A stretch of DNA of 43,797 nucleotides from Microcoleaceae cyanobacterium bin_387 (GTDB taxonomy: Bacteria > Cyanobacteriota > Cyanobacteriia > Cyanobacteriales > Microcoleaceae). The notes beneath the pieces were generated by a model. It saw only the letters and a list, made by a program, of their open reading frames with translations. It made no database searches and was not told the DNA's origin. The translations under genes were made by a program, and so were the position numbers. Positions 3,438-42,247 of the stretch are shown here, in pieces; positions within the stretch are counted from its first letter, which is position 1; every line of letters starts with the position of its first letter. The stretch lies in contig JBBITB010000001.1 of the NCBI GenBank assembly GCA_037440985.1, positions 1 through 43,797 of the forward strand, given 5' to 3'.

Positions 3438-3620
3438 ACAAATGAGTTAAACTGACGTAGATTTGTGACAGTTAAATGATCTGTCTTTGCCAAAAATTCT
3501 CAGTGTTGATGGGATATTTGCAATAGACGATACAGTTATGATTAATGGCGGAATCTTGATCGCGGCAAAAATAAATGTCCCACTATTGCCATTGGGGAGT
3601 AGATTAACAATAAAGAAACT

Positions 3621-4925
3621 TTAGAGACTTCTTTGAGGCAAAGTGAAATAAAAAGTAGCTCCTGCACCTAATTCTGATTCCACCCAGATTTTACCCCCAT
3701 GACGTGCTAAAATTTTTTGACAGATCGCGAGTCCGATTCCTGTACCCGAATATTCCTCTTGAGTATGGAGACGCTGAAAAATTTGAAAAATACGTGAAAA
3801 GTGCCTAGAATCAATACCTATGCCGTTATCTCGAACTGCGAATAGACTATAGTCATTTTCATGGATGCAAGTAATCTCAATGACAGGGGGTTCATCCCTA
3901 TGATACTTAATAGCATTGCTAATCAAATTTTGAAACAGTTGTACTAATTGAGAATTATCGCCCATCACCACGGGCATCATACTATAGATAATAGATGCTT
4001 TATTTTTCTGAATCACTCCTTGGAGATTAGCCATTACTTCTTCTAATATACGATTACAATCACATACCTCAAACTTTTGCCCCCTACTACTAACGCGTGA
4101 ATATTCTAGCAAATCATCGATCAATTTTTGCATTCGACTCGCTCCCTTCACAATTTTTTGAATAAATTGATGAGCCTTCGCGTCCAAGTTATCTTTATCA
4201 CGTTCTTGTAAGAGTTGTGCATAATTCGCGATCGTTGCCAGAGGCGCCTGTAAATCGTGAGAAGCAATAGAAGCAAATTGCTCTAATTCTGCATTAGAGC
4301 GGGCTAATTCCTGATTCGTTTTTTGTAGAGCTAATTCGGCTCGTTGTCGTTCACTAATTTCTTTTTGCAATAAAATATTTTGTTCCTGCAAAGTTTTTTC
4401 CACAGCCAAACGACTATTAATTTCCTGTTGCAATAAAATATTCTGATCCTGCAAAGTTTTTTCCACAGCCAAACGACTATTAATTTCCTGTTGCAGTAAA
4501 ACATTTTGTTCTCTCAACTGCATTTGTAACCGTCTTAGCACCAGTTGATTTTCTATTCTTGCTAAAACTTCTTCGACTTGAAATGGTTTACTGATATAAT
4601 CAACAGCCCCTAATGTAAATGCTTTAATCTTATCAAAAACTTCATCTTTGGCACTTAAAAAAATCACCGGAATTTCGCGTGTTTTCTGATCCTCTTTCAA
4701 TTTTTGACAAACTTCATATCCATCCATTTGAGGCATCATAATATCCAATAAAACCAAATCAGGTGCTTTGGTTTGTACTGCTCTCAATGCCATTTGCCCA
4801 TTGAGTACAGCCCGACATTGATAGCCACGTTCGCTCAATAATGTAGATAACAAACGCAGATTTTCCGGTTTATCATCAACAACTAAAATATTTCCCTGAA
4901 AAGACAATTCTTGTTCCTTATTCAT
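3621..4925 (-). CDS. Response-regulator / histidine-kinase fusion: N-terminal REC domain, coiled-coil linker, HisKA and HATPase_c
   Basis: The REC domain has the motifs DD...D(LLDIMMP)...K(ISKP). The H-box is ASIASHDLQAPL. The C-terminal region shows N/G1/G2 ATP-lid motifs (NAIKY, DNGIGID, GTGIGLAI). The ORF track starts at TTG 4931. The first ATG is at 4925 (MNKEQ...) and overlaps the upstream gene's TAA as ATGAATAA. Confidence 0.85.
   Translation of the reverse strand: MNKEQELSFQGNILVVDDKPENLRLLSTLLSERGYQCRAVLNGQMALRAVQTKAPDLVLLDIMMPQMDGYEVCQKLKEDQKTREIPVIFLSAKDEVFDKIKAFTLGAVDYISKPFQVEEVLARIENQLVLRRLQMQLREQNVLLQQEINSRLAVEKTLQDQNILLQQEINSRLAVEKTLQEQNILLQKEISERQRAELALQKTNQELARSNAELEQFASIASHDLQAPLATIANYAQLLQERDKDNLDAKAHQFIQKIVKGASRMQKLIDDLLEYSRVSSRGQKFEVCDCNRILEEVMANLQGVIQKNKASIIYSMMPVVMGDNSQLVQLFQNLISNAIKYHRDEPPVIEITCIHENDYSLFAVRDNGIGIDSRHFSRIFQIFQRLHTQEEYSGTGIGLAICQKILARHGGKIWVESELGAGATFYFTLPQRSL
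4368..4493. repeat. 63-bp in-frame tandem duplication inside the REC-HK gene (2 full copies plus a diverged partial third copy to about 4520)
   Basis: Copy 1 is 4368-4430, caataaaatattttgttcctgcaaagttttttccacagccaaacgactattaatttcctgttg. Copy 2 is 4431-4493 and differs at 2 positions. The encoded 21-aa unit is NILLQQEINSRLAVEKTLQ(D/E)Q, three heptads, sitting in the REC-to-HisKA linker. Confidence 0.8.
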
Positions 4926-7599
4926 AATCAATAAATTTTTCTGTTAAATCGGTAATTTTATCAAAGCGAAACTCTGTTACCCAAGTTTTGAGTAAATCCA
5001 TCAAATCTGAAAATTGGGGGGGGATTTCTAAGGTAAGTTCCCCAATTATTTGATCATCGGCGGCAAGGGCTCCATTATGGAGAGCCTTCACCCACCCCGG
5101 AGGCATTTCTTTGAGGATATCTAGTATTTTTTCATTGCTAGGAGTGTGATCAGAGGAAAATTCAGCACTGGTTTCTAGTGTGACATTTTCATAGAGATAT
5201 TTGACTCCTAAATGCTCACTCATTTTGGATAAAAGGATATCTTCTTGAAAGGGCTTGGAGACTAAATCGTCACAACCTGCGGCAAATACCAGATGTCTTT
5301 CTTCATCGAGAGCACTCGCGGTTAAAGCAATAATAATAGTATCATGACCTTTCGGTAAACCTCTAATTGATTTGGTGGCTTCATAGCCATCCATCACAGG
5401 CATTCGCATATCCATCCAAATTAAATGGGGTTTCCAATTTTCCCATATTTTGACACCCACTGCTCCATTTTCTGCTTCTTTTACTTCAAAACCAATACTG
5501 GAAAGTAATTTAACTAACAATTGCCGACTTTCCCAACGATCTTCTACCACTAAGATACGATATTGTGTTTGATCGGGTACTAATCCGATCACTCGTTGTG
5601 GTTTTTCTGGTGATGAAATCCCCCTGGATTCGACTAATTGCACTTTGACATCAAAGGAGAAAATTGTTCCTTTTCCCAAGGTACTCTCAACCGCGATCGT
5701 GCCTCCCATCAATTCAATAAATTTGCGACTAATCGGTAAACCCAGTCCCGTACCCGATTGAGAGATACGCCCGGATTCTGTTTGGGCAAAAGGTTCAAAT
5801 AAAAGATGTAATTCATCTTGGGCAATTCCCATCCCTGTATCTTCTATTTCCCACAAAATAAATTTTTCTTTGGGATTCTCTGTAGGGCGACTAGAGATAC
5901 GGATAGTGACATTTCCCCTTTCGGTAAATTTAATAGCATTACCGAGGATATTAATTAAAACTTGACGCAATTTACTTTCATCAATTTCCACATATTGAGG
6001 AACTTGGGAACTCATATTAAAGCGCAATTGTAGTCCTTTTCCCTTGGCTTTGAGATGAAACATCTCTTCTAAGCTATCGAGAAGTTCATAGAGATCAATG
6101 TGTTTAGGATTGATCGTTAACCGTCCGGCTTCTATTTTGGAAAGTTCTAAAACTTCATTAATTAATCCTAATAAATGTTGACCACTATTGCTAATAATTC
6201 TGACATATTCTTGGATTTCAGAAGACAGGGAAGCATGACGAGACATCAGTTGAGTAAATCCCAGAATGGCATTGAGGGGGGTTCTCAATTCGTGGCTCAT
6301 ATTTGCGAGAAATTCACTTTTCGCTTTATTGGCAGCATCCGCGGCGTCTTTGGCTTTTTTAATCGCGTCTTCTGCTTGTTTGCGTGTGGTAATATCCGTG
6401 ACACGCACCAGATTAATTATTTGCCCTGCAACATAGATTTGTTTAGTCGCTAAATTTCCCCAAAAAGGCTTCCCTTTTTTCGTTAAATACTCTACTTCTC
6501 TACTGCCAAATCCCTGATTTTCTCTCTCTGTAATCGGCGGACAATCCTCTTCGAGACAAGAGTTGCTAGAGCGAGTCACTCCTTCAAGATTGAGTAAGTC
6601 TTCTTTACTCTCTGCTTCAAACATTTCGACGGCTCGACGGTTGCAATCCTGAATTAATAATGTGTCTGGGTTGACGAGGAAAATGGCATCGGCTGATTCA
6701 TTGAAAATCGAAGAAAGTAAGTCTTTACTCCTAATTATTTCTGTTTCAGCTTTTTTGCGATCACTAATATCCTGACTGACACAAATAATACAAGTTTCCC
6801 CAGCAATTTCAATCAAGTCTGCTGATAACAAAAGGGTACGAATATCTCCTGATTTTTGGCGAAACTGAAATTCATGGTTTCGCACAATTCCCTTTTGATT
6901 TAAGACTTGATAAAAATTCGTGGGTTCCCCTTGATTTAACCAACCGGGTAAATTTTGTGAACTCTGTTCGAGCAAGTCTTCAGGAGTATAACCTGTCAGT
7001 TGTATAAAGGCTTCGTTTACTTCAATGAAAGCACCATCTTTCACTCGATTAATTGAAATGGGATTGGGGGAAGAGCGAAACGCGATCGCGAATTTTTCCT
7101 CGGATAGGCGTAAGGCAGATGTACGTTGTTCAACTAAATTTTCTAATTCTTCATTTAATTTCTGGAGTTGAATATTTTGTTCTGCGAATTGCCTTTCTAA
7201 AAAATAACTATGGACAGCTTCTTTGACAGTTAAGCGTAAATCTTCAATTTGCCAAGGTTTAGCTATATAGCGATAAAGTCTCGCGTACTTAATCGCATTC
7301 CCAATCGCTTCTAAATCCGCTTGCCCTGTCAGTAAAATATTCAGAGTCTTCGGGGTAATTTGATGGATTTTTCTGAGTAATTCATCCCCTTTGATTTGGG
7401 GCATAATATAATCACTAATTACTAAAGCTATTTCATAATTTTCTTCTAATAAATCTCTGAGTACCTCTAAGGCTTCTTCAGCTCCTTCCGCCGTTTCAAT
7501 CATATATTCATTTTCCAGAGTCGTCTTCAATTCAATTCTGAGACTCTCTAGGATCGTCGGTTCATCATCGACACAAAGAATAACGGTTTTTTTCTTCAT
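4918..7599 (-). CDS. Hybrid sensor histidine kinase: REC, PAS, PAS, HisKA, HATPase_c, REC, then an unassigned C-terminal domain of about 95 aa
   Basis: 893 aa. The N-terminal REC begins ILCVDDE...DYIMPQ. The H-box is NMSHELRTPLNAILGF, followed by HATPase motifs GNAIKFT, DTGMGI, GTGLGL. A second REC follows (ILVVEDRW...DMRMPVMDG...K). ATG at 7599 has the SD gaggtaaaaaa upstream. Confidence 0.85.
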   Translation of the reverse strand: MKKKTVILCVDDEPTILESLRIELKTTLENEYMIETAEGAEEALEVLRDLLEENYEIALVISDYIMPQIKGDELLRKIHQITPKTLNILLTGQADLEAIGNAIKYARLYRYIAKPWQIEDLRLTVKEAVHSYFLERQFAEQNIQLQKLNEELENLVEQRTSALRLSEEKFAIAFRSSPNPISINRVKDGAFIEVNEAFIQLTGYTPEDLLEQSSQNLPGWLNQGEPTNFYQVLNQKGIVRNHEFQFRQKSGDIRTLLLSADLIEIAGETCIICVSQDISDRKKAETEIIRSKDLLSSIFNESADAIFLVNPDTLLIQDCNRRAVEMFEAESKEDLLNLEGVTRSSNSCLEEDCPPITERENQGFGSREVEYLTKKGKPFWGNLATKQIYVAGQIINLVRVTDITTRKQAEDAIKKAKDAADAANKAKSEFLANMSHELRTPLNAILGFTQLMSRHASLSSEIQEYVRIISNSGQHLLGLINEVLELSKIEAGRLTINPKHIDLYELLDSLEEMFHLKAKGKGLQLRFNMSSQVPQYVEIDESKLRQVLINILGNAIKFTERGNVTIRISSRPTENPKEKFILWEIEDTGMGIAQDELHLLFEPFAQTESGRISQSGTGLGLPISRKFIELMGGTIAVESTLGKGTIFSFDVKVQLVESRGISSPEKPQRVIGLVPDQTQYRILVVEDRWESRQLLVKLLSSIGFEVKEAENGAVGVKIWENWKPHLIWMDMRMPVMDGYEATKSIRGLPKGHDTIIIALTASALDEERHLVFAAGCDDLVSKPFQEDILLSKMSEHLGVKYLYENVTLETSAEFSSDHTPSNEKILDILKEMPPGWVKALHNGALAADDQIIGELTLEIPPQFSDLMDLLKTWVTEFRFDKITDLTEKFIDYE

Positions 7600-10656: not shown

Positions 10657-12942
10657 TTAATCGGCTCGCATCCACCGGAAAAAAGACGCGATGGCGCGAT
10701 CAATAAAACTATAGGGTTTTTCCTCACTTAATTTCCGTTGTACTCTTTCACGTTGCCATTCCAATTCTGTAATTAACATTTCTCCCTGTTGATTACGCAG
10801 GACTATTGCTAAATAATCATGGCTGATTTGATAGTAATCAAAAGGTAGAGAAGGGATCACAGAAATAATGCCCGCTTCGCTCAAAATATCGAGGACTAAA
10901 TCCAATTTATTCGCTTCTCCGGCTAAATCAAAGGCAAGTTCATCACGAGTTTTCATGACACGAGAGCCATTTTCATTGGTGAGTAAAAATAACACTAATC
11001 GGGCTGTCCGTTCATTTAGTCTTCCACAGTTGCTAATCACATCATCGAAGAAATTTTTGATCAAAACTCGTTTGGGAGATTCTCCTAATTTGTGGTAATT
11101 TTCTATCGTGGTAATGCCTGACTTTTGCAACTGAGAACCTAACAGTTGCAACGCGATCGGTGCCACCGTATCCATTTCATCCCATAATTCCATCATTACG
11201 CGATCGAGTAATTCGGGATCTAAAATAAATTGGGTGCGATGGGTTAACTTTTCCATCAGATGTCGGGCATGGCTAAATTGTAAATTACCTAAATAATAAC
11301 GAATCTCTTTCGACAATAAATCATTGTTAATACTGTCCAGATTTGTACAGCGTTCACATTCTAATAAATAATGTAACGCGTCACTACGAATTGACAAGAT
11401 CATTTTGAGGGAATCCTGTTGTAAACAAAACTCGAAGAAGTCATAAAATATTCTTCTGGTAGAACGGTTTCTCCCCAAAAAGAAATCCTCGAATTGATCA
11501 AAAATCAGGAGAATTAAATGGTTTTGACTGGTCAACTCTTCGATGGTATTTTCTACATCTTTCACTGATAAAAAGTTCCCTCCCTCTGGAACTTCTGAGG
11601 TAGGAGAATTTCTTTTTAATTGTCTGTATAGGTCTCTTACCCAATCTCTGTAATTACTGACTGTTACCATCACTAAAGGAGTTTCCGTGAACCCCTCTGT
11701 TGATGATTGGGATAAAAGAGGAATTAATCCGGCTTGTAGTAAAGAAGTTTTCCCAACCCCTGATTCTCCATGCAATACTGTCAATTTTTTTTGGGGATCT
11801 TTGACCCGTTCTACTAAGGCATCGACATCGCTGCGGCGACCGGAGTCTTCTATTTCTAGCGCGATCTTCGCGGGGGAAGATTTATTAATAATCAGAGGAG
11901 ATAGGGGCGAAATACCAATAAAAGAATTGCGACCATACTGATATTTAATCATCCTCTCTTTCTGATAAATACGGAAGGCTTCCCGATACTCATCTTGGTC
12001 GAAGTACAGCTTTTGTAAAGCTTTTAATATCTGTAGATAAATCTGTAATTCTTGTTTAGGATCTGTTTTAGCTAGGGCATCTTCCAATTCTTTAACAGTG
12101 GATTGCCATTGATGAAATTCTTGACGAGATTCGGCTACCAGAATAGCATAAGAACTCTGACTATCTGTTTCCTCTAATTGGGATTGGGTTTGAATCGCGA
12201 GTGCTAATTCCGCGAGTTGACTGGCATGAGCCCATTTAGAATTGTGCATCGCGGCTTCTGCTAAAAAGCCATAGTCTTGAGCTAATTGACTTTCGGAACC
12301 ATAGGTGATATGTAAATTTAAGGCTTTTTGGGCGAGACTTTGCAAGTCTTCCCATAAAGATAAATGCTGTAATACTTCTCCCTGTTGATTAATAAATTTA
12401 GAGACTAAATCTTCACGCCCTGCTTCTTGGCAAATGTCTAAACATTGCTGGAAATACTGTTTGGCATCTTTCCAGTGAATTACGGTTTCTTGCGTTGGCT
12501 CTAAAACTCCTAAGCGATAGTGACACAAACCGATATGAAAGAATAAAATTGCTAACCATTCTAATGTAGTCTGTGACACGGAATGTTGTGGAGAACCCTT
12601 GCTTTTTGACTTGGATTCTTTCGGCTGCCAGAATATCAAAGTTTTTTGATAATGAGCTAACGCGTCTTTAATTTCATCGCGACTATAGCACTCTCGCCCT
12701 CGCATAAATTCTAAATTTGCTTTGAGTTGAGGTTCTAATTCATGCTGATGTCGTAGTAAATCGCGAATAACTGCCTGTAGTGTTTGATAATCAATGTCTC
12801 CCAAAATGTCGGAATTGGGGAGAAAAGTGGGTGTCTGGGGATCTAAAATGTTCCCCAGAATCTCTGTAATACTTTGCTTGAGAAAATTCACTAACCCAGG
12901 TGTATCCACGGGTATATATTCTGGTTGGTTTGTATCTGCCAT
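10657..12942 (-). CDS. STAND-class P-loop NTPase (nSTAND/AAA_16-like) with an N-terminal TPR-like helical domain of about 380 aa
   Basis: 761 aa. Walker A is LTVLHGESGVGKTSLLQAGLIPLL near aa 385-410. Walker B is LLIFDQFEDFF about 80 aa later. Both match the GxSGxGKS/TSLLxAGL and hhhhDQFEE signatures of STAND NTPases. After the NTPase there is an alpha-helical region of about 300 aa but no WD40/TPR repeat array. The N-terminal 380 aa are helical and TPR-like. Confidence 0.75.
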   Translation of the reverse strand: MADTNQPEYIPVDTPGLVNFLKQSITEILGNILDPQTPTFLPNSDILGDIDYQTLQAVIRDLLRHQHELEPQLKANLEFMRGRECYSRDEIKDALAHYQKTLIFWQPKESKSKSKGSPQHSVSQTTLEWLAILFFHIGLCHYRLGVLEPTQETVIHWKDAKQYFQQCLDICQEAGREDLVSKFINQQGEVLQHLSLWEDLQSLAQKALNLHITYGSESQLAQDYGFLAEAAMHNSKWAHASQLAELALAIQTQSQLEETDSQSSYAILVAESRQEFHQWQSTVKELEDALAKTDPKQELQIYLQILKALQKLYFDQDEYREAFRIYQKERMIKYQYGRNSFIGISPLSPLIINKSSPAKIALEIEDSGRRSDVDALVERVKDPQKKLTVLHGESGVGKTSLLQAGLIPLLSQSSTEGFTETPLVMVTVSNYRDWVRDLYRQLKRNSPTSEVPEGGNFLSVKDVENTIEELTSQNHLILLIFDQFEDFFLGRNRSTRRIFYDFFEFCLQQDSLKMILSIRSDALHYLLECERCTNLDSINNDLLSKEIRYYLGNLQFSHARHLMEKLTHRTQFILDPELLDRVMMELWDEMDTVAPIALQLLGSQLQKSGITTIENYHKLGESPKRVLIKNFFDDVISNCGRLNERTARLVLFLLTNENGSRVMKTRDELAFDLAGEANKLDLVLDILSEAGIISVIPSLPFDYYQISHDYLAIVLRNQQGEMLITELEWQRERVQRKLSEEKPYSFIDRAIASFFRWMRAD

Positions 12943-19190: not shown

Positions 19191-19286
19191 CTGTAGGTTG
19201 GGTTGAGTCATTTGTAGTCATCTGTAGGTTGGGTTGAGGCACGAAACCCAACATCTTCACTAGGTTAAGTATACCTCAACCCAACT
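19191..19286. repeat. Hairpin repeat family B (taggttgggttgag ... aaacccaac), two adjacent units
   Basis: ctgtaggttgggttgag occurs twice, followed by cacgaaacccaacatcttcac and taggttaagtata...caacccaac. The same units occur at 27493-27520, 30189-30250 and 35915-35946. Confidence 0.6.
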
Positions 19287-19315
19287 TACCAAAAAAGCGT
19301 TGCACATTCGTGGAA

Positions 19316-19650
19316 TGAGCCAGTAGTAGTATTGTGTAGGTGGGCTTTAATTATCCTATTTCTTGTGATAGAATTAGATGAGATGGTTGATTAAACCCAA
19401 CCTCGTTAAGTATTGTGTAGGTGGGGTTTAATTATCCCATTTCTTGGGAGCCTCTCAAGGTTGTAAATTGGCCGTGGGAGCGAGACGCTCTCACTAGAGT
19501 TTTTGGGCTTCTTTGAGAGGCTCCCCATTTCTTCTGATATAATTAGAGAGTGGATTCAATCTAACCTACTTCATTAATCTATAGGTGGGGTTTAATTATC
19601 CCATTTCTTCTAATATAATTAAAGGGTAGATTCAACCAAACCTACTGAAT
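19316..19650. repeat. Nested cluster of MITE-like repeats: three units of family C (taggtgggg/ctttaattatcc(c/t)atttctt ... ataattaga/aag ... gattcaa.c.aacctac) with a family A palindromic element (19446-19526) embedded
   Basis: Near-identical 30-40-bp units start at about 19328, 19407 and 19578. gggagcctctcaa ... ttgagaggctccc at 19446-19526 forms a terminal inverted repeat. Confidence 0.6.
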
Positions 19651-19913
19651 TAAGCCTGAATTGAGCTAGTTGGTAGCCAAGACAATAGAGGCGAGCACGT
19701 CCCCCCAATTGGGTTAAGTTGGAATGCGATTCTCAACAAATCGCCTTCGCCATAAGGGGCTATGGCAAATCTTATCACAAATAATGCCTAGTATTGTCAC
19801 ATCTGTACGGGGTATTGTTACTGTTACTACCTAGTGCTGATCTATTTATTGGTGAGGGTGGGCTTGGGGATTTTAGCTCAATTTTTGTTTAATTATTCAC
19901 TCCAATACTTTCT

Positions 19914-27597: not shown

Positions 27598-27660
27598 CTG
27601 TAGGGACACGGCAGTGCCGTGTCCCTACCTTTAAGGCACTGCCGTGTCCCTACTTTAAGG
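27598..27660. repeat. Tandem palindromic units (gggacacggcagtgccgtgtccctac ... ggcactgccgtgtccctac), related to cacggcagtgccgtg in the 3281-3437 repeat
   Basis: This perfect palindrome core, cacggcagtgccgtg, appears here twice and once at 3326-3344. Family-B hairpin 27493-27520 lies just upstream. Confidence 0.55.
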
Positions 27661-27695: not shown

Positions 27696-28793
27696 TTACA
27701 ATGAATATAAAATTAAAGTGCCTTGTTGAGGTATTTTACCATTTTTATTCTGCTCAAATCGCCAATGTTGTTTAAATTTATTGAGAAAATTTTGACCTAA
27801 AATTCCATCTATTTCTAAGAATTTAAGAATGGAACTATCTAAGATGATCACTTCTAATTTATTAAGTTTTTTCTCACCTAATTTAACTTCTGCCAGTTGT
27901 GTGAGTTTTGCCGATTCTAAACCACAAAATCCTTCGACATTAATATCTTTCATCTGAGGGGGCGTGAGCGCGAGTTTTTGGGCGACTTGGGGGGACATAA
28001 AAATACTTTCTGCCCCTGTATCTAATAAAAAAGTAAAAGGACCTTTACCATTTATTTCGACTTGGGCTAACATGACTCCTAATTTTCCTTGCAAAGGAAT
28101 CGCGTTATTACGTTGTTTTGTGGGTAACTCGGAAGGAGGTAATAATTGAATATTCGCTTGAGTCGGATCAATAATTACATCAAATTTACTTAATAAATCC
28201 ATCCCAAAAACTCCTGATATATCATTAGGAATCGCGGTATTTGCTAATTCTAAAACACTTAAATTATCAATATTAATAGACTTATTTTTGAGAGTAGGTA
28301 AACGATGTAAAATCGCCTGAAAATTGGGACAACTATTACCCGCGACAGCATAATCTAAACGATCGCGACTGATGGAGGTTCCCTGAAGCCCCAATTTTTG
28401 GATCAAAGGGGAACCCACCATCGTTGTTACGGCTCCAGTATCGACTAAAAAACGTCCTGATACTGTCCCCACTTGGAAATCCAAGGTCCATAATAACCCC
28501 CCGGAAAGTAAATAAAGGGGTAAAGTTTCTGCCCCGGAGACTTGGGGACGGGGTAATTCTAAATCTTTGAGTCGAACGATCGCGTGAGTGCGAGGATTTG
28601 ATATCATTAGACATCTCGATAAACTACTGTAGGGTAAGTCTCCTATCTGCCATTGCTCCCGTTTTTGGGAGATGTTTGTTGTTACTGCCCAAGGTGGGGA
28701 TTTTGCCGACACGGGCGATATCAGAAAACTTCCCACGGAGGATAAGGAAAAGAGAAAAAAAGTCGCGATCGTTCCCCAAAATTCCATAATCAA
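27696..28793 (-). CDS. Secreted two-domain retropepsin-like (clan AA) aspartic protease
   Basis: 365 aa. The N-terminus is a signal peptide. There are two D(T/S)G active-site motifs in duplicated lobes: FLVDTGAVTTMVGSPLIQKLGL near aa 118 and FLLDTGAESIFMSPQVAQKLAL near aa 258. The two-lobed arrangement resembles pepsin. Confidence 0.7.
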   Translation of the reverse strand: MIMEFWGTIATFFLFSLSSVGSFLISPVSAKSPPWAVTTNISQKREQWQIGDLPYSSLSRCLMISNPRTHAIVRLKDLELPRPQVSGAETLPLYLLSGGLLWTLDFQVGTVSGRFLVDTGAVTTMVGSPLIQKLGLQGTSISRDRLDYAVAGNSCPNFQAILHRLPTLKNKSINIDNLSVLELANTAIPNDISGVFGMDLLSKFDVIIDPTQANIQLLPPSELPTKQRNNAIPLQGKLGVMLAQVEINGKGPFTFLLDTGAESIFMSPQVAQKLALTPPQMKDINVEGFCGLESAKLTQLAEVKLGEKKLNKLEVIILDSSILKFLEIDGILGQNFLNKFKQHWRFEQNKNGKIPQQGTLILYSL

Positions 28794-30188: not shown

Positions 30189-30250
30189 GGTAGGTTGGGT
30201 TCAGACACCAAACCCAACATCTTCAAGGGGTTAAGTATCGTTCAACCCAA
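30189..30250. repeat. Hairpin repeat family B copy (taggttgggttcagacaccaaacccaacatcttcaaggggttaagtatcgttcaacccaag)
   Basis: Almost identical in layout to 19222-19286. Confidence 0.6.
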
Positions 30251-30419
30251 GGGACAAAAAATCACGAAGGTATTGATTAAGAAACCGGATTTCTCAATCT
30301 ACCTGAGAAGTTAGGTTAATATAGTGAGTCAGTATCTTTCTGTGTCTGGGATACATTCCCTTTCACCAAACAAATAGATAAAAATTAATTTTTGAGGATT
30401 TTTTTTCGGTTGTAATTCA

Positions 30420-31923: not shown

Positions 31924-33834
31924 TCATCCCTGTTCCCTGAATTTCCATAATTTGATCGTTTGATCATTACTACCACTGGCAATTATGCCTTTATAGCTCG
32001 CGATACAATTAACGGAATCTGTGTGGCCTAAAAGTATTGCTATCTCATTACCGTTATTGACATCCCATAATTTAATTGTTTTATCCCAACTACCACTAAT
32101 TAGTATTTCTCCATCTACCGAAAAAGTCAGCGCTGAAACTACCCACGGATGTCCTGATAAAATGCGGATGCACTGCCAGGATACAATATCCCAAAGACGA
32201 ATCGTTCGATCTTCTCCTGCCGTTGCCAACCATTTGCCATTGGGACTAAACGCGATCGCTCTGACAGACGCGGTATGTCCTCTCAAAGTATAAATTGATT
32301 CCAATGTACTCAGATTCCATATTTTCACGGTGGAATCCTGACTGGCACTCGCGAAAATCGGTTGACTCTCAATTTTGAGACTGTGTGGGCTAAACGCGAG
32401 GGCTGTTACCGCTAAGATATGTCCCTGAAGTGAGGCGAGTATTTCTCCCGTCTGAGCATCCCAGAGATTAATGGTTTTGTCGGAACTACCACTGGCAAGC
32501 ATTTCCCCATTGGGGCTATAGATTACCACATTAACGGTATGTTTATGGCCTGTTAAGGTTTGAATAATACTGCCTGTTTGGATATCCCAGAGGTTAATGG
32601 TGGGATCGCGACTGCCGCTGGCGAGGATATTTTGCGCCGTCGGATGAAACGCGATCGACTTCACAAATTGACTATGGCCTTGCAAAATCAAGCTTTGTTG
32701 CCCCGTATCTATCTCCCATAGCCGAATTGTCTTGTCATCACTTGCACTCGCGAGAAGCTTGCCATCGGACGCGATCGTGACCGCGTTAACACTTGCAAAT
32801 AAACCATGATGTCCTACTAGGGTAGCATAACATCTCCACAAAGGTGATTTTTGTGATAGTTTCGTTTCTCCCTTTGTCATAGAAATGCTCCTTTTCTTGC
32901 CACCAATTTTCTCAATCTCCGTAATGACTTCCTCCGCACAAGAGAATCTTTCCTTGAGATCATAGGCAATCATGCGATCAAGCAATTGAGTTAACTGTTG
33001 ATGTTTTAGCCCTTCATGAGCATTGATAGCATCGGGCAAACAATAATTCTGCCATGTTGATCGGTGATCAATGAAATCAAACAAATTGAAGGGATGAATG
33101 CCCGTGAGGAGATGAATACAAGTCACTCCTAAACTATAGAGATCACTGGCAAACACCGGTTTACCTCTCAGTTGTTCTGGCGCGGCATAGGCAGGACTAC
33201 CGATCGCGCTTGAGGATTCCAGGGCGATTATTGTCGTCGGAAGTATTGCCACACCAATATCCACTAAAACCAAATCAGCTAAAATATCCCCGCGTTGAGA
33301 AGACTCCAGAGAAACTCGACAAATAATATTTTCAGGCTTGATATCACCATGAATCACGCCACAAAGATGAAGCCACTGAATCACGGGCAGCAGACTGGAC
33401 AAAATTTGCCAGACTTCCTTGACATTAAATGTACCCTTTTGGGCTAAAACCGTGGCTAAATTCTCCCCAGAAATGTACTCACGCACCCGATAGAGAACAC
33501 CATCTTGCACAAATTGATCGCGCACCAAGGGAATTTGAGAAGACAGTCCCAATTCCCCTCCCTCAAATCCCCGCGGTAAGGGAGTTTGGATATCTTGGGA
33601 GTTACCCCAGAATTGTTTGATCACGCAAAGACGGGTAGGGGATTGAGCGCGATCGATCGCGAGAAAAGTCCGAGCCAACCCTCCCTGCCCCAGTAATCTG
33701 ATCGCATGATAGCGTTCGGCTAATAATAAAGGATGGCCACAATTGTTACAGAATCGGTTAACCTCTGGATTTTGCGACTCCCCACAGTTGGGATTAAAAC
33801 AACAGATGTTGATATTAGTGAGTTTGTGATTCAT
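31924..33834 (-). CDS. Ser/Thr protein kinase with N-terminal zinc ribbon and C-terminal 7-bladed WD40 propeller
   Basis: CxxC...CxxC is at the N-terminus (CCFNPNCG...CNNCG). Kinase subdomains are GQGGLARTF, VIKQF, HGDIKPENI, DIG and SPAYAAPE. It is followed by 7 WD40 units. The likely start is ATG 33834 (MNHKLTN), which overlaps the flotillin stop by 20 nt. The ORF track start is 33891. Confidence 0.85.
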   Translation of the reverse strand: MNHKLTNINICCFNPNCGESQNPEVNRFCNNCGHPLLLAERYHAIRLLGQGGLARTFLAIDRAQSPTRLCVIKQFWGNSQDIQTPLPRGFEGGELGLSSQIPLVRDQFVQDGVLYRVREYISGENLATVLAQKGTFNVKEVWQILSSLLPVIQWLHLCGVIHGDIKPENIICRVSLESSQRGDILADLVLVDIGVAILPTTIIALESSSAIGSPAYAAPEQLRGKPVFASDLYSLGVTCIHLLTGIHPFNLFDFIDHRSTWQNYCLPDAINAHEGLKHQQLTQLLDRMIAYDLKERFSCAEEVITEIEKIGGKKRSISMTKGETKLSQKSPLWRCYATLVGHHGLFASVNAVTIASDGKLLASASDDKTIRLWEIDTGQQSLILQGHSQFVKSIAFHPTAQNILASGSRDPTINLWDIQTGSIIQTLTGHKHTVNVVIYSPNGEMLASGSSDKTINLWDAQTGEILASLQGHILAVTALAFSPHSLKIESQPIFASASQDSTVKIWNLSTLESIYTLRGHTASVRAIAFSPNGKWLATAGEDRTIRLWDIVSWQCIRILSGHPWVVSALTFSVDGEILISGSWDKTIKLWDVNNGNEIAILLGHTDSVNCIASYKGIIASGSNDQTIKLWKFREQG

Positions 33835-35803
33835 CCACAATTTCCCCTTGAAGCACCGTAGGGGGATTACTATTGCCATTATTTTCCTCAATGGCAGGTG
33901 TTTGATTCCACAAGAACATTCCCATCACAGCATCCAATAAGCCAGAACCATTGCTACCACTAACAGCAACATCAGGAACCACTCGCACCTGGCGATCGCC
34001 AATCACCTGCATTAGTTGTAATGCCGTGTAAGCCTGACTACCAAGGGCATTTACCCCAGCTTTATAGGCATCGGCTTTGGCATCTCCCGTCAGACGAATG
34101 GACTCCGCTTCACCATTAGCCTGTTCGATCGCGGCTGCGGCTTGGAGTTTAGCAATATTAACACCTTGTTCCGCTGTCACCACTTCTTTTTGAATATCAG
34201 CCAATGCCGTTTCTCGCACCAATTCTTGACGCTGAGTTTGGGCAGTGCGCTGAGTCATATAAGTCTTTTCTTGTTCTTCCGCGATCTTGCGATCGGTCAA
34301 TGTTTGCATTAACTCAGGAGGAGGTGTAATTAAACCAATTAGGGTATCAACGGCCTGGACATCATAAGCCCGTAATGCCTGACGCACATATTCCGCGGCC
34401 TCCGCCTGACGCTCACTCCGCGCAGTGAGAAAATCGAGGATGGTGTATTCCTGAGCCGAGTTGCGGAAGTAGTTGCCCACAATCGGACGCAACACCTGAT
34501 CGACCAGATTTTGCATCGAACCTAAACGCGAAATCACCTTGGGTGCATCCATTGAGCCCACATGGATGATTTGGAACACCTCCAGATCAAAGGTGAAGCC
34601 ATCAAAGGAAAGCAATTTGAGAGCAGAGAGAGAGGAATCGTATCCATGTTCTCCTTGAAAGCGAGAAGTGAAATTGAGTACAATGTTGGTGGTAGGAACC
34701 AGTTCCACTTTCATAATTTTGGTGTTCAGGGGATGTTTACCCGCCTGTAACGACTCAATCCAAACGCCCTTATCTCCCCGACTGACTAGATTGCCGTGGG
34801 TAAAGGAGTCGCCGCTGACATCTCCATGGGATTGCCCTACATAGGAAATCACTACTCCCACATACCCGATCGGTACTTCCGTCATCGGCACTTGTTCCAC
34901 CTGCACAAACCAGGGGTTGAGATTCCATGAGCCAGAGAGCATTACTTGTTCCTGTAAGCCTCTGCGTCCACCTCCATTGATAAAAGTCTGAGCATTCTGA
35001 AAGTTTTCGTGACCTGAGATCACTGGACCGGCAATTTCTCCTTCTTCTATAGGCATTCCATCCCGGGTGGTGACAATTCCTACGCGATCGGGTTTAATTG
35101 AATAAACCCTGAGTTGCTCTGCTGTCATACCATGTGTGGTGGCATTGCGTGATGTAATGACTGTAAACAAAGCTGTGTTGATGCGATAGGTCCCTGTCGT
35201 CAGTACGGGTAACTGTCGCCCTTTTTCACCGTGGTTGATGAGAAATTTGCGGGCATTCTGGAAGTTTTCGCTCTCTACGACTTTGCCTAAAATACGATTG
35301 GGTGGAATTGAGGCGCCATCGTTCGCGATAATGAGTCCGATTTCATCCTGGGGAATAATGATGACTGACTCTTTGTGTACGTTGTACTGCCAGGGAAAGT
35401 AGCCAAAGTGCCAACCCGGAGGCAGAGTATCGGCTTGCAAACCTGCTTCTCCATTGAGCGCGATCAGTCTTCCCGCAAGGAGACTTTTTGAGGAGAATTT
35501 TTTGGTGACAATTCCGACTTCGCGATCGGCAATTACGATCAAACCCGCCACCCAGCCAACCTTGGGTAGAAAGATGAGGATGAGTATCACAGTCCCCAGA
35601 GGATACACCCATACTGGGAAGTCAGGGATCTGAGCTTGTACCAGTTGTATATCCTGCTGTTGAATAGATGGGGAATTGCTTTGAGAGGGATTGGTTTTTG
35701 GAGTCTGGGCTGTGGCTGGTGTTGCCACAGTTGTTATCACATTTGCTAGTACAAAGGATAGAGTCAGCGGCAAAAAATGTCGCAGAAACTTTAATTTCAT
35801 CAT
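33815..35803 (-). CDS. Flotillin-like SPFH/band-7 membrane protein
   Basis: 662 aa. An N-terminal signal/TM segment is followed by a second TM (VWVYPLGTVILILIFLP...). The SPFH-like core is followed by an Ala/Glu-rich coiled-coil tail (IAKLQAAAAIEQANGEAESIRLTGDAKADAYKAG) that is typical of flotillins. ATG 35803 has the SD gaggaaa. Confidence 0.7.
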   Translation of the reverse strand: MMKLKFLRHFLPLTLSFVLANVITTVATPATAQTPKTNPSQSNSPSIQQQDIQLVQAQIPDFPVWVYPLGTVILILIFLPKVGWVAGLIVIADREVGIVTKKFSSKSLLAGRLIALNGEAGLQADTLPPGWHFGYFPWQYNVHKESVIIIPQDEIGLIIANDGASIPPNRILGKVVESENFQNARKFLINHGEKGRQLPVLTTGTYRINTALFTVITSRNATTHGMTAEQLRVYSIKPDRVGIVTTRDGMPIEEGEIAGPVISGHENFQNAQTFINGGGRRGLQEQVMLSGSWNLNPWFVQVEQVPMTEVPIGYVGVVISYVGQSHGDVSGDSFTHGNLVSRGDKGVWIESLQAGKHPLNTKIMKVELVPTTNIVLNFTSRFQGEHGYDSSLSALKLLSFDGFTFDLEVFQIIHVGSMDAPKVISRLGSMQNLVDQVLRPIVGNYFRNSAQEYTILDFLTARSERQAEAAEYVRQALRAYDVQAVDTLIGLITPPPELMQTLTDRKIAEEQEKTYMTQRTAQTQRQELVRETALADIQKEVVTAEQGVNIAKLQAAAAIEQANGEAESIRLTGDAKADAYKAGVNALGSQAYTALQLMQVIGDRQVRVVPDVAVSGSNGSGLLDAVMGMFLWNQTPAIEENNGNSNPPTVLQGEIVDESQTH

Positions 35804-36270
35804 GGTTTTATTTCCTCATTAATAATCAAAACTTCGACTTGCCGTAACTGATACATCTCAAGGTGCTTTAGCTCCGATTAATTAGGCCAATGGAAAAAAG
35901 TTTGGTTACAGTGGTGTTGGGTTTTACTACGTTCAACCCAACCTACTGTTGCGTCACTTTTCCGAAACGATATGAATAAATGTTTTCCTCAATCATAACG
36001 TTATCTCTTGGAATGGGAAAATTCTTGCCGTTTCCCTGTTTCTATTGGCTTTTCTCTGGGATTTTTAATAATTATCTTAAACGTTATATAACTTTACATT
36101 TTGTCAACAGATAGAGCGGTTTGTTGTTGGCGGCTATGGCAGACCTCTCTTCTACAAGGAGAGCTTGGATATCACAAAATCATTAAAAAGTCAATATTTT
36201 CTGAAAAAATATAGCAATCCGAAACTATAACAGATTTAGGATTGCTATAGGACTATATATTTTGTATTTG

Positions 36271-39605: not shown

Positions 39606-39977
39606 TATATAGCGTAGAAATGGGCTTTCTGCCCCAATAAAACACTAAATCTAGCCCCCTCTCTTGGTAAGAAGTGATGGAAAGGCGCACATATCACAAT
39701 CTCAGTGAGAAACCCCCGATCTTCCAGTAAAATTAAGAATGTTTAAATCGTCTGGAAAACAATACCTTCGCCAACAACGATAAAACACCCAACATCCCTA
39801 GTCTGTAGGGGCGGTGGATGGTGCGATCGCGCCCTACAGAAGGTGAAGCTATACTAGAGACATATCCACAAACTACTGTAGGGTAGGCTAATCCTGCCTT
39901 TGATCTGATTTTGGGGTGATGTCTTAGGAAAGCGGGTTTCTTTGCGTAAGTCCTAAAAGTAACAGTGAGATGAAATA

Positions 39978-41198
39978 ATGAAATCTATCCCTCGTATAGA
40001 ATATCTCAAAGTGCAAAATTATCGCGCTTTACATAATCTCGAACTCAAAAATCTTACCCCCTTAACCGTCTTTTTGGGGCCCAATGGCAGCGGAAAATCA
40101 ACGATTTTTGATGTCTTCGCTTTCCTGTCTGAATGTTTCACCGAAAGCCTCAGAAAAGCATGGGATAGACGGGGCAGATTTAGAGAATTACGCACCAGAG
40201 ATAGTGACGGCTGCATCATCATTGAATTAAAATATCGAGAGACATCCAAATCGCCTTTAATCACCTATCATCTCGCCATAGATGAGGAAAATAATCGTCC
40301 CTATATTGCTGAAGAATGGCTACATTGGAGAAGAGGCAATCAAGGTAAACCTTTTCGCTTTTTAGACTTCAGAAAAGGCGAAGGACAAGTCATTAGTGGC
40401 ACAACTCCTGATAAGGAAGAAGGCGAAAGGATTATCGAACAACTAGCATCACCTGAATTATTAGCAGTAAATACATTAGGACAATTTGCCAAACATCCCC
40501 GCGTTAGTGCCTTAAGACGTTTTATTACAGGTTGGTATTTATCCTATTTAACTGCGGATCATACTCGCAGTCTTCCCGAAGCAGGGGCCCAGGAAAGATT
40601 ATCTCCTACTGGTGACAATTTACCCAATGTTATCCAATACCTAAAAGAACAACATCCCCAACGGTTAGAAGAAATACTAAAAACCCTTTCTAATCGTATT
40701 CCACGCCTCGAAAAAGTCGAAGCTTCTATTATGCAGGATGGCAGACTTTTGTTGGAAATTAAAGATGCTCCGTTTTCTCATCCGATTCTGGCAAAGTTTG
40801 CCTCTGATGGTACATTAAAACTCTTAGCTTATCTGACAGTATTATTTGACCCGACTCCCCCGCAATTAGTGGGAATAGAAGAACCAGAAAATCATTTACA
40901 TCCGCGTTTATTACCTCAACTTGCCGAAGAATGTCGTTCGGCTTCTGCTAATACTCAATTAATGGTAACAACCCATTCCCCCTTTTTTGTCGATAGTTTA
41001 AAACCAGAGGAATTATGGGTATTATATCGAGATTTAAAAGGCTTTACCCAAGCTAAAAGAACCGCAGATATGCCCGGAGTTAAAGAATTTATGAATCAGG
41101 GTGCATTACTTGGTTCGCTGTGGATGGAAGATTTTTTTGATGTGGGAAATCCTCTTAAAAATTCTGGTGTTCCTCAATCGTTCACAGCTAAAAATTAA
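39978..41198 (+). CDS. ABC-type ATPase of the OLD/AAA_21-AAA_15 family (RecF/SMC-like)
   Basis: Walker A is [17 protein letters not shown] near aa 30-45. The Q-loop region follows. The Walker B/D-loop is [13 protein letters not shown]. The H-loop is [12 protein letters not shown]. There is a long insert between the two ATPase halves, typical of OLD/AriA/GajA-like ATPases. Confidence 0.8.
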
Positions 41199-41204
41199 GA
41201 GGAG

Positions 41205-41837
41205 GTGAGTATTTTGCATCTTGAGTTTTTAGTAGAAGAAGCATCCCTAGAATCAGCTTTAACCTATCTTTTACCCAAAATCCTGCCATCCACTTTTACC
41301 TTTAGAATTCATGCTTTCCGAGGTAAACCAGATTTACTGAATAAATTGCCTGACCGTTTAAACGGTTATCGAGCATGGCTTCCGTGTGATTGGAAAATTG
41401 TTATTTTAATAGATGAAGATCGAGAAGATTGTCTAAAATTAAAAAACGAACTAGAAAATAAGGCAATCTGGGCTGGCTTCATCACTAAATCTTCCTGCAA
41501 AAATGAGAAGTTATTTGAAATTTTAAATAGAATTGTAGTTGAAGAATTAGAAGCGTGGTTTTTCGGCGATGTTGAGGCAATTTGTCAAGCTTATCCTAAA
41601 GTTTCTCCCAATTTAGCTAATCAAGAATCATATCGCGATCCTGATGCAATTAAGGGTGGAACGTGGGAAGCATTAGAAAGAGTCTTACAAAAAGCAGGAT
41701 ATCATCAGGGGGGACTAGAAAAATACAAAGCTTCTCGCGACATCTCTCAATATATGAATCCTCAATTAAATCGCTCTAAAAGTTTTCAAGTATTTTATCA
41801 AAGTTTATTAGAAATCATTAATAGTGAGGAGGTATAG
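41205..41837 (+). CDS. Small TOPRIM-like protein (DUF4276-like), putative nuclease partner of the upstream ATPase
   Basis: It starts 6 nt after the ATPase stop. The probable real start is TTG 41214, which has the SD gaggagg 8 nt upstream. The N-terminus HLEFLVEEASLESAL matches a TOPRIM strand-1 Glu (hhhVEGxxE). VILIDEDRED at about aa 65-74 is a DxD motif. Confidence 0.55.
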   Translation: MSILHLEFLVEEASLESALTYLLPKILPSTFTFRIHAFRGKPDLLNKLPDRLNGYRAWLPCDWKIVILIDEDREDCLKLKNELENKAIWAGFITKSSCKNEKLFEILNRIVVEELEAWFFGDVEAICQAYPKVSPNLANQESYRDPDAIKGGTWEALERVLQKAGYHQGGLEKYKASRDISQYMNPQLNRSKSFQVFYQSLLEIINSEEV

Positions 41838-41845
41838 CAGTCCTA

Positions 41846-41935
41846 AATAGGTTGTAAGAAAATAGTGGCTTAAATGCTTACGGTAGGGGCAATTCATGAA
41901 TTGCCCCTACCACGAATCATTTAGGATTGCTATAT
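41846..41935. repeat. MITE-like element with terminal inverted repeats (agtcctaaatagg ... catttaggattgc) and a perfect internal palindrome ggtaggggcaattcatgaattgcccctacc
   Basis: taggattgctata also occurs at 36236-36250 and, inverted, at 2683-2700. The internal hairpin could also serve as a terminator for the ATPase/TOPRIM operon. Confidence 0.45.
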
Positions 41936-42247
41936 AATCAATTTGCAGTCCTGAAACTTTTGTCTGAAATGATAAAAAAGTTTCAATAAAGTTTTTTTTC
42001 TGTAATACAAATTGGTAATTAATGCGATCGCGCTAATCCTGTCGGTATGATATCATCTCACAGTATTATTGTCGTTTTTTGGGGTGGGTTCACCTGTATT
42101 ATGGTTATTGGTGAACCGACCTATAGGATTTTTGTTCTATTAAAGCAGGAGAATTTTTATGTTTTATAGGAATAAAAAAAGTATTTCTTACTCCTATTTC
42201 TGGAAATAATGAAATCATTTCCAGAGAAGAACATTTTTATTTCTATT

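Follow-up and report, generated by a model that had tools for sequence, protein, structure and literature searches.

The question raised by this locus is whether two adjoining genes of a Microcoleaceae cyanobacterium encode an anti-phage system and, if so, which one. An initial annotation of the window (the whole 43.8-kb stretch of 43,797 nt that was analyzed) had described them as an ABC ATPase gene coupled to a small TOPRIM-like gene, forming a candidate defence module that resembles split OLD, PARIS, or AbiL. Both ORFs, termed here A and B, are present on the plus strand where that annotation had located them, and their features are as follows.

39978–41198, plus strand: gene A, HEC-01A-type ABC ATPase, 406 aa (AAA_21, AAA_15, and PADLOC matches)
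40077–40103, plus strand: Walker A of A, GPNGSGKST, G34–T42, with K40 as the Walker A lysine
S276–K281 of A, plus strand: signature SDGTxK (alignment of homologues)
40878–40892, plus strand: Walker B/catalytic E301–E302 of A, in LVGIEEPE / EEPEN (alignment with PtuA)
40974–40976, plus strand: H-loop H333 of A, in TTHSP (alignment of homologues)
41201–41205, plus strand: Shine-Dalgarno GGAGG for gene B, 3 nt past the A stop and 8 nt before the TTG (read from the sequence)
41214–41837, plus strand: gene B, HEC-01B-type DUF4276 protein, predicted nuclease of TOPRIM fold, 207 aa (profile matches, fold model)
41235–41237, plus strand: predicted metal-site residue E8 of B, in LEFLVEE
41412–41420, plus strand: predicted metal-site residues D67-E-D69 of B, in ILIDEDRED
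41544–41552, plus strand: predicted metal-site residues E111/E113 of B

The ATPase assignment of A was borne out by Pfam. AAA_21 (PF13304) matched over its whole length (profile positions 1–304 of 304) with an E-value of 2.5e-30 (107 bits; cut-off, 27), and AAA_15 matched with 1.3e-21. The Walker A motif, the SDGTxK signature, EEPEN, and H333 are invariant in nine homologues (lowest identity 36%), and E301 and E302 line up with the D-E of PtuA. Among the motifs first proposed for A, Walker A K40, Walker B, and the H-loop thus stand, whereas HLHP, although present in A, is replaced by QLYP or GLYH in distant homologues and is therefore not a family-wide catalytic motif. The similarity of A to Rad50/SMC/RecF heads is weak and at the motif level, and A matches phrog_4747, a PHROG of unassigned function. 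A is an ABC ATPase and belongs to the AAA_15/21 clade (OLD/PtuA/AriA-like).

The stop codon of A (TAA) is at 41196–41198, and B has two in-frame starts, GTG 41205 and TTG 41214. The former had been chosen initially; it is indeed in frame, and a ribosome-binding site is present at the A/B junction. The PADLOC profile alignment begins at residue 4 of the GTG form, a separate gene call gave 207 aa, and distant B homologues begin with M-H-[LFI]-E; consequently, TTG 41214 is the best predicted start, giving a protein of 207 aa and a 15-nt gap after A on the same strand. The junction sequence TAAGAGGAGGTGAGYATTTTGCAT is conserved in locus L002.

B was matched by Pfam DUF4276 (PF14103) at 2.7e-26 (93.5 bits; cut-off, 30.2; profile positions 1–191 of 192), a family already assigned to TOPRIM in the literature (PMC12065111). 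E8, D67, and D69, the conserved Glu and DxD recognized at the outset, are invariant in alignments of 8 and of 85 sequences, and E111 is also invariant in the homologue alignments. The fold model of B (pLDDT 87.8, pTM 0.85) has the TOPRIM three-layer α/β architecture with a four-stranded core, in which E8 follows strand 1 and the DxD is at the end of strand 3. The solved structures nearest to the model are the C-terminal regions of OLD nucleases, followed by AriB and GajA. A profile of eight B sequences gave no meaningful match in the PDB, and no PHROG family matched B; the TOPRIM relationship is detected only by fold comparison. The B family comprises roughly 1,350 clusters; its 150 best representatives are stand-alone proteins of about 200 aa, none long enough for an ATPase. 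Both the DUF4276 similarity and the TOPRIM fold were therefore found, and B is a small DUF4276 protein with the fold and acidic triad of a metal-dependent TOPRIM nuclease.

In PADLOC, A matched the HEC-01A model PDLC04182 at 8.8e-175 (579.5 bits; residues 5–391, profile positions 2–404 of 406), and B matched the HEC-01B model PDLC04202 at 3.2e-94 (312.7 bits; profile positions 1–202 of 204). At E ≤ 1, only HEC-01-named PADLOC models matched B. These E-values, like those of 2.5e-30 for AAA_21 and 2.7e-26 for DUF4276, indicate that the matches of A and B are not due to chance. With both proteins matching near full length and the genes adjacent on the same strand, the pair belongs to PADLOC HEC-01 and is a standard member of this already catalogued candidate anti-phage system. 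The profile searches proposed initially returned the AAA_21/AAA_15 and DUF4276 matches that had been anticipated, and the name HEC-01 came from PADLOC.

HEC-01 (Hma-embedded candidate 01) was described as an ABC ATPase with a TOPRIM protein by Payne et al. (2024, bioRxiv 10.1101/2024.01.29.577857), and its predicted TOPRIM fold and conserved OLD-like metal site were published in the same study. Their HEC-01 gave no protection in E. coli against their phage panel. In a later cold-seep study, one two-gene HEC-01 representative protected E. coli B against one or more of the phages T7, T5, and T4. In view of the negative panel of Payne et al., anti-phage defence is demonstrated for at most one HEC-01 representative, and not for the PDLC04182/PDLC04202 subfamily. 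Pairs of an ATPase and DUF4276 are also present in the AAA15/21 tree of the PARIS paper (PMC11464382).

We propose that the locus is probably a stand-alone HEC-01 module, in which A serves as an ATPase sensor/regulator and B as a putative TOPRIM nuclease, with a defence function assigned by analogy. As in OLD/Gabija and PARIS, from which this scheme is inferred, A and B would form a complex with A as the sensor and regulator. On sensing foreign nucleic acid or a cue of infection, A would license B to cut. The substrate of B may be DNA or RNA (tRNA), and its cleavage would either destroy the invader or arrest the cell (abortive infection).

The surroundings of the pair are as initially described, between the PSII assembly cluster and sodB: psbE/F/L, ycf48, rubredoxin, and cobO lie to the left, and a psiE-like gene and Fe-SOD to the right. 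Pfam annotation of 20 of the larger ORFs of the window, together with the identities of the immediate neighbours, gave only signalling, WD40, STAND, and housekeeping proteins, and no restriction-modification (R-M), Hma, or other recognized defence gene was among them.

The DNA homology to the Microcoleus-type copies spans exactly 39977–41836, from the A start codon to the B stop codon, with 88% identity. Against these copies, the dS of the pair is 0.40–0.54, whereas the synonymous sites of the adjacent cobO are saturated against Microcoleus-named loci. The dS far below that of cobO and the similarity ending exactly at the ORF ends indicate horizontal acquisition, and the A–B cassette has thus moved horizontally. 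GC3 is 0.30 in A and 0.25 in B versus 0.38–0.49 in the neighbours. The dN/dS values against the Microcoleus-type orthologues (~0.10 for A and 0.20–0.23 for B) are low, and both genes are therefore under purifying selection. In other cyanobacteria, the pair was present in none of 80 loci with cobO and 80 with psiE, and comparison with these loci defined no insertion boundary. Among the 80 cobO loci, only L012 is closely related (98%), and the contig carrying it stops ~200 nt past cobO. Exact-protein matches of cobO and psiE were only on contigs of one sample, which are broken at the 30-nt palindrome (41882–41911), and a metagenome scan with psiE gave no relative above ~80%. The sodB–psiE adjacency was found in 15 of the 80 psiE loci, with A/B, cobO, and rubA in none of them.

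The intergenic regions on both sides of the cassette contain repeats.

39805–39837, unstranded: GTAGGG...CCCTAC hairpin with HIP1 (GCGATCGC) in the loop, between the divergent genes cobO and A, 141 nt 5′ of the A start
39853–39885, plus strand: dispersed repeat of intergenic DNA (AGACATCTCC..AAACTACTGTAGGGTA), one copy, 5′ of A in the same spacer
41833–41934, unstranded: MITE-like nested hairpin of 102 nt, abutting/overlapping the B stop codon (inverted repeats, fold energy)
41833–41848 and 41919–41934, unstranded: 16-nt terminal inverted repeats of the MITE-like element
41882–41911, unstranded: perfect 30-nt palindrome, the core of the MITE-like element

The first two account for the repeat-rich spacer noted previously at 39800–39900. 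The MITE-like element, reported at 41846–41935, is real, with a corrected extent of 41833–41934. Its fold is strong (ΔG −51.3 kcal/mol, z −7.6), and that of the spacer (39790–39905) has ΔG −39 and z −2.0. The terminal arm of the MITE-like element occurs in four copies in the window versus 0.05 expected, and the GTAGGG...CCCTAC hairpin pattern occurs three times versus 0.02 expected; the dispersed repeat family (D11) has copies at 3258, 28604, and 39853. The MITE-like element is missing downstream of the Microcoleus-type A–B copies and lies outside the transferred cassette. It is possibly a 3′ RNA-stabilizing or terminator structure. A 14-nt direct repeat (GAAATAATGAAATC, 39972 and 42203) was rejected as a target-site duplication, because it is only marginally unusual (24 of 1,000 shuffles) and its left copy contains the start codon of A. 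When the whole window was searched with Rfam (gathering thresholds) and for tRNAs, no match was obtained, and a promoter and terminator scan was at the background level. The cassette is bracketed by two of the three GTAGGG...CCCTAC hairpins, which, with the MITE-like element at the B stop, hints at hairpin/REP-associated capture. An extended scenario, which we consider quite unlikely, is that filamentous-cyanobacterial HEC-01 is an autonomous bare two-ORF mobile cassette, with repeat-rich intergenic landing, hairpin/REP-associated capture, and no R-M/Hma partner, and that it would act through a minimal TOPRIM RNase/DNase of 207 aa, released as in PARIS.

The A-then-B adjacency is obligatory across phyla: A is immediately 5′ of B in all 14 loci examined, which represent 12 independent contexts, and the gap between the genes ranges from −4 to +15 nt. 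The two genes are thus co-conserved, a point on which the initial reading had made its interpretation depend. Near relatives (64–85% identity) are spread across phyla. In the Microcoleus-type genomes, the pair occupies one fixed locus (4/4 loci) with a permease, sigma-70, and gyrA as neighbours, and 75–82% identity to B is shared by 18 or more named proteins of Microcoleus/Tychonema. Both in the window and in the Microcoleus-type genomes, the pair stands alone amid housekeeping genes, which counts against defence; so does the fixed Microcoleus-type locus, since defence genes typically have a patchier distribution.

Other contexts bear on what the pair does. Two independent type I R-M operons contain it between hsdS and hsdR (hsdM-DUF262-hsdS-DUF4433-macro-A-B-hsdR and hsdM-hsdS-A-B-hsdR), and this arrangement suggests an accessory module that would not defend by itself but would tune or support a system of the type I R-M, Hma, or MADS-like kind, the solitary copy being an orphan or serving an R-M encoded elsewhere in the genome. 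The first discovery of HEC-01 embedded in Hma systems and the lack of defence by stand-alone HEC-01 (both bioRxiv 10.1101/2024.01.29.577857) are in line with such a role, as are Mad3 and Mad4, which are accessory MADS components not reliably detected in every MADS system. However, 10 of the 12 independent loci lack an adjacent R-M, no R-M gene is among the annotated ORFs of the window, purifying selection on the solitary cyanobacterial copies is clear, and the two-gene construct of the cold-seep study was protective by itself in E. coli B. We therefore regard an accessory role as unlikely.

The pair is also found on a conjugative plasmid, on pSYSM beside toxin–antitoxin (TA) and Dnd-associated genes, and in late-region slots of prophages (Q antiterminator-A-B-lysis). 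The plasmid copies, the TA neighbours, and the horizontal transfer as a bare two-ORF unit are what would be expected of a TA-like addiction or selfish cassette, in which B would be a toxic nuclease restrained by A, and which would persist and spread since its loss is harmful, with no need for immunity. The labels of related proteins have the same flavour: Pfam AAA_21 is annotated as "putative AbiEii toxin, Type IV TA system," and AriA is named "antitoxin" in the PDB. This mechanism overlaps with that of abortive-infection defence, so that the two may both hold, and the fixed chromosomal site in the Microcoleus-type genomes is explicable without addiction; we find the addiction reading very unlikely. 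A housekeeping repair or processing pair (SbcCD/Rad50-Mre11-like or RNase M5-like), kept in filamentous cyanobacteria for a cellular role, is highly improbable: the housekeeping neighbours here (PSII assembly, cobO, sodB) and in Microcoleus-type genomes, the stable locus in the latter, and the weak motif-level resemblance of A to Rad50/SMC/RecF heads fit it, but the horizontal acquisition, the absence from the cobO and psiE loci of other cyanobacteria, the scatter of near relatives across phyla, and the homologues inside R-M operons and prophage moron slots argue against it.

As a probable stand-alone HEC-01 module, the locus demonstrates that a sequence-only reading can recover a genuine candidate immune module, one that PADLOC flags automatically. 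What value it retains is that of a clean test case, provided by nature, for HEC-01, the mechanism and activity of which are unsettled: it is stand-alone, horizontally acquired, and under purifying selection, its ATPase and TOPRIM sites are intact, and it has no R-M partner. This copy is suitable for asking whether two genes are enough for defence, what the target of B is, and what cue A responds to. It also extends the known habitats of HEC-01 to the chromosomes of cyanobacteria and to a locus widely retained in Microcoleus.

In comparison with the known systems, the locus is an ATPase + TOPRIM pair and is not itself PARIS, AbiL, RloA/RloB, or MADS. In MADS, Mad3 is an ATPase of the AAA_21 type, Mad4 has been reported to be homologous to DUF4276 (PMC12065111), and deletion of Mad3/Mad4 weakens MADS defence in P. 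aeruginosa. MADS identity was rejected, as A reached 124.4 bits where the MAD3 equivalog of NCBIfam requires 420; on PADLOC mad3 it scored 74 bits versus 579 on HEC-01A. Pfam annotation of 20 of the larger window ORFs and the identities of the neighbours gave no candidates for the mandatory mad6–8. AbiL (AbiLi/AbiLii) and RloA/RloB likewise combine an ATPase with a small TOPRIM-superfamily partner, often in or beside R-M loci, and A has a weak AbiLi match (86 bits). However, the partner there is of the RloB family (PF13707), which B did not match at E ≤ 1 in Pfam, leading to rejection of this identity, and RloA-type ATPases are larger than A.

PARIS was rejected because B has no DUF4435 match at E ≤ 1 in Pfam. 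AriB is a DUF4435 protein of 305 aa (PDB ID: 8v46_D), whereas B is a DUF4276 protein of 207 aa. A resembles the solved AriA at the motif level only (E = 0.004 with the single sequence and 5e-6 with the profile), and the 102 and 86 bits of A on the PADLOC AriA models come from the same coordinates, with profile lengths near-identical to those of generic AAA_21/AAA_15. PARIS features a hexameric scaffold, Ocr-type triggering, and tRNA cleavage, of which the sequences and the fold model of B gave no sign. OLD nucleases (P2 Old, class 1–4; GajA of Gabija) carry the ATPase and TOPRIM in one chain; A and B are two proteins encoded by two ORFs with a stop codon between them, and OLD identity was rejected on this ground. 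Gabija differs further in that no UvrD/GajB-like helicase partner accompanies A–B. The published HEC-01 is Hma-embedded, whereas the present copy is a solitary chromosomal cyanobacterial cassette with no Hma or R-M. The order of an AAA_21 ABC ATPase followed by a DUF4276/TOPRIM protein is common to both, and the published fold and metal site are reproduced here.

Both ORFs described in the initial annotation were present on the + strand in an ORF check of the window. The first encodes the ABC ATPase (A), in which the Walker A motif GPNGSGKST (with Lys40), the ABC signature SDGTLK, LVGIEEPEN, and TTHSP were read directly from the sequence. The second encodes its DUF4276/TOPRIM partner (B).

39978-41198, +, A, 406 aa
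41196-41198, +, TAA stop codon of A
41201-41205, +, GGAGG, Shine–Dalgarno sequence of B, after the TAA of A

The in-frame starts of B 3′ of the stop codon of A are GTG 41205 and TTG 41214. The ORF had been given a start at 41205 and a length of about 205 aa, but three lines of evidence favor TTG 41214 and a 207-aa product: the alignment to the PADLOC HEC-01B profile begins at the TTG-encoded residue, an independent gene call on an identical public contig gave 207 aa, and distant homologues have the N terminus M-H-[LFI]-E. With this start, the gap between A and B is 15 nt and the Shine–Dalgarno sequence is 8 nt upstream of B; translational coupling can reasonably be inferred from this arrangement.

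The module is a standard member of the catalogued candidate anti-phage system HEC-01. In PADLOC, A matched the HEC-01A model PDLC04182 (8.8e-175, 579 bits, 2-404/406), and B matched the HEC-01B model PDLC04202 (3.2e-94, 313 bits, 1-202/204), with only HEC-01-named models at E ≤ 1. The PADLOC models of AriA, AbiLi, mad3, and PtuA scored 5 to 8 times below HEC-01A on A. The anticipated Pfam matches were also found: AAA_21 (2.5e-30, entire 304-position profile) and AAA_15 for A, and DUF4276 (2.7e-26, profile positions 1-191 of 192) as the sole match of B at E ≤ 1. In NCBIfam, the best match of A was MAD3 (124 bits, under the cut-off of 420), and B had none. PDLC04144, labeled HEC-01B, matches the ATPase (391 bits), and PDLC04143, labeled HEC-01A, matches B (99 bits); one PADLOC subfamily, perhaps of reversed gene order, thus seems to have its A and B labels exchanged.

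The Glu and DxD attributed to a TOPRIM site in B are intact. Glu8, Ser11, Asp67, Asp69, Glu111, Glu113, and Trp115 are invariant in an eight-homologue alignment (down to 32% identity), and Glu8, Asp67, Asp69, and Glu111 remain so among 85 sequences. The AlphaFold2 model from the latter alignment (pLDDT 87.8, pTM 0.85) has a core of alternating strands and helices, in which Glu8 immediately follows strand 1 (2-7), Asp67-x-Asp69 lies where strand 3 (60-67) ends, and Glu111/Glu113 follow strand 4 (103-108). Its top Foldseek match was the C-terminal region of Xanthomonas OLD (E 1.5e-3, prob 1.00), whereas a search of the PDB by sequence alone found nothing for B. The ATPase site of A is likewise intact. 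Across nine homologues (down to 36% identity), the invariant residues are Gly34, Gly37, Gly39, Lys40, Ser41, and Thr42 (Walker A region), Ser276, Asp277, Gly278, Thr279, and Lys281 (signature region), Glu301, Glu302, Pro303, Glu304, and Asn305, and Thr332 and His333. Of the motifs cited initially, HLHP varies in distant homologues. In the alignment with PtuA, Glu301 takes the place of the Walker B Asp and Glu302 that of the catalytic Glu; therefore, the A family has Glu where the Walker B Asp is usual.

The pairing is strict: A is immediately 5′ of B in all 14 B-containing loci (12 independent contexts), and in the loci examined the two genes overlap by up to 4 nt or are separated by up to 15 nt. 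The A/B identities drop in parallel (93/80, 66/48, 65/52, 41/34, 38/33, 40/32, and 36/28%). Together with PADLOC, Pfam, and the predicted fold, this co-conservation bears out the original reading of an ATPase/TOPRIM candidate defense pair. At 50% identity, the B family comprises 1,353 clusters with E ≤ 1e-3 (696 with E ≤ 1e-10); the 150 best-matching members typically have about 200 aa, and an ATPase would fit into none of them. The contexts, several of them of defense type, are as follows.

Meiothermus plasmid: hsdM-DUF262-hsdS-DUF4433-macro-A-B-hsdR
IMG/VR contig L092: hsdM-hsdS-A-B-hsdR
Rahnella prophage and IMG/VR contig L094: antiterminator Q-A-B-lysis genes
Pseudomonas conjugative plasmid: T4SS genes on one side, MobF relaxase on the other
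Synechocystis pSYSM: adjoining TA and Dnd-associated genes
Pseudanabaena plasmid
Faecal phage contig
Microcoleus-type chromosomes: permease-A-B-sigma70 every time

B-family members sharing 64-85% identity with the Meiothermus copy come from Planctomycetota, Acidobacteriota, Pseudomonadota, Cyanobacteriota, and Armatimonadota. As rival readings, the pair might be an accessory module of R-M systems or an addiction cassette; no R-M, Hma, or MADS genes were found within the window, where Pfam annotation covered 20 of the larger ORFs and the immediate neighbors of the pair were identified. In the four fetched Microcoleus-type loci, named from the similarity of B to named Microcoleus proteins, the order thioredoxin reductase-permease-A-B-sigma70-MalK-like-gyrA is fixed (4/4), an unusually stable position for a candidate defense system. 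B shares 75-82% identity with at least 18 named Microcoleus/Tychonema proteins.

The cassette lies here between psbEFL-ycf48-rubA-cobO and psiE-sodB. Its DNA is 88% identical to the Microcoleus-type loci over 1,860 nt, exactly 39977-41836, from the ATG of A through the stop codon of B, and both flanks are unrelated. The dS is 0.40-0.54, whereas adjoining cobO has reached saturation in comparisons with Microcoleus-named loci and with other genera (identity at third positions 0.39-0.45; dS not computable or > 2.4). The dN/dS values against the Microcoleus-type orthologues are 0.10 (A) and 0.20-0.23 (B). A has a GC3 of 0.30 and B one of 0.25, lower than in the five neighboring genes (0.38-0.49), although still within the range of all window genes. 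These features together argue that the cassette was exchanged horizontally well after the lineages split and is maintained by selection; the timing is qualitative because the yardstick is a single housekeeping gene. A housekeeping repair or processing pair is the weakest reading because of this transfer signature and the contexts of the homologues.

The MITE-like element and the hairpin/repeat-rich spacer noted on either side of the cassette were recovered by inverted repeats, folding, and repeat copies.

41833-41934, complete 102-nt MITE-like element, overlapping the stop codon of B
2682-2699, +, solo terminal arm TATAGCAATCCTAAAT
36232-36249, -, solo terminal arm TATAGCAATCCTAAAT
39805-39837, HIP1-containing GTAGGG...CCCTAC hairpin, spacer upstream of A
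27600-27628 and 41883-41910, GTAGGG...CCCTAC palindromic hairpins, intergenic
3326-3354, near copy of this hairpin
3258-3290, 28604-28636, and 39853-39885 (the last in the spacer upstream of A), dispersed intergenic repeat TCATTAGACATCTCC..AAACTACTGTAGGGTA, 79-100% identity

The complete element (dG -51 kcal/mol, z -7.6) is bounded by 16-nt terminal inverted repeats and contains a perfect 30-nt palindrome, at which public short-read assemblies break; its arm occurs four times in the window (0.05 expected). The three hairpins (0.02 expected) are all intergenic, and two bracket the cassette, an association spotted post hoc. An exact 14-nt direct repeat, GAAATAATGAAATC, lies at 39972-39985 and 42203-42216, either side of the cassette (any such repeat in 24 of 1,000 shuffles), and is probably not a target-site duplication because the left copy contains the start codon of A.

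Besides hybrid histidine kinases and WD40 proteins, the window encodes housekeeping proteins and, 27 kb from the cassette, an nSTAND1 NTPase. STAND NTPases are often conflict or signaling proteins.

10657-12942, -, nSTAND1 (novel STAND NTPase 1) protein, 761 aa, adjoining a CBS-histidine kinase gene
180-2414 and 31924-33891, both -, large WD40-repeat proteins, one of 744 aa with 12 repeats, the other of 655 aa with a Ser/Thr protein kinase domain at the N terminus; repeats visible in DNA with a 126-nt period
4355-4480, 63-nt tandem duplication (94% identical) in response-regulator/histidine-kinase gene 3621-4931; would be in-frame (21 aa)
19224-19653 and 30190-30261, intergenic repeat cluster; a 72-nt unit common to 19224 and 30190 (82%), and three units of about 68-80 nt in 19297-19653
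2415-3620, about 1.2 kb lacking any ORF of ≥100 aa, rich in repeat copies (TIR arm, dispersed repeat, hairpins)
27696-28793, -, retroviral-type aspartyl protease domain (gag-asp_proteas, 3e-26) in a protein of 365 aa

For the candidate defense pair, we propose by analogy with OLD/Gabija and PARIS that A may bind and regulate B, and that a phage-derived cue or ATP turnover would license B for DNA or RNA cleavage. Our literature search found no mechanistic study of HEC-01, and the value of this clean, partner-less, horizontally acquired copy lies in that question. HEC-01, which pairs an ABC ATPase with a TOPRIM partner, was discovered inside Hma systems; an OLD-like metal site was predicted for HEC-01B, and no defense was observed in E. 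coli against the tested phage panel (Payne et al., bioRxiv 10.1101/2024.01.29.577857). A cold-seep study reports protection of E. coli B by one representative against one or more of the phages T7, T5, and T4.

By profile, the closest solved relatives of A are class 1 OLD (3.4e-12), an "AAA family ATPase" (9n69), PtuA, retron ATPases, and AriA (5e-6); each of these matches is restricted to the nucleotide-binding motifs and their surroundings. The TOPRIM character of DUF4276 has been published: DUF4276 and RloB were placed in the TOPRIM superfamily, and Mad4 was termed a DUF4276 homologue (Menshen paper, PMC12065111). The AAA15/21 tree of the PARIS study contains DUF4276-partnered ATPases (MADS3-4) (PMC11464382). 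In MADS, deletion of mad3 and mad4 lowered defense, and the detection model treats both as accessory.
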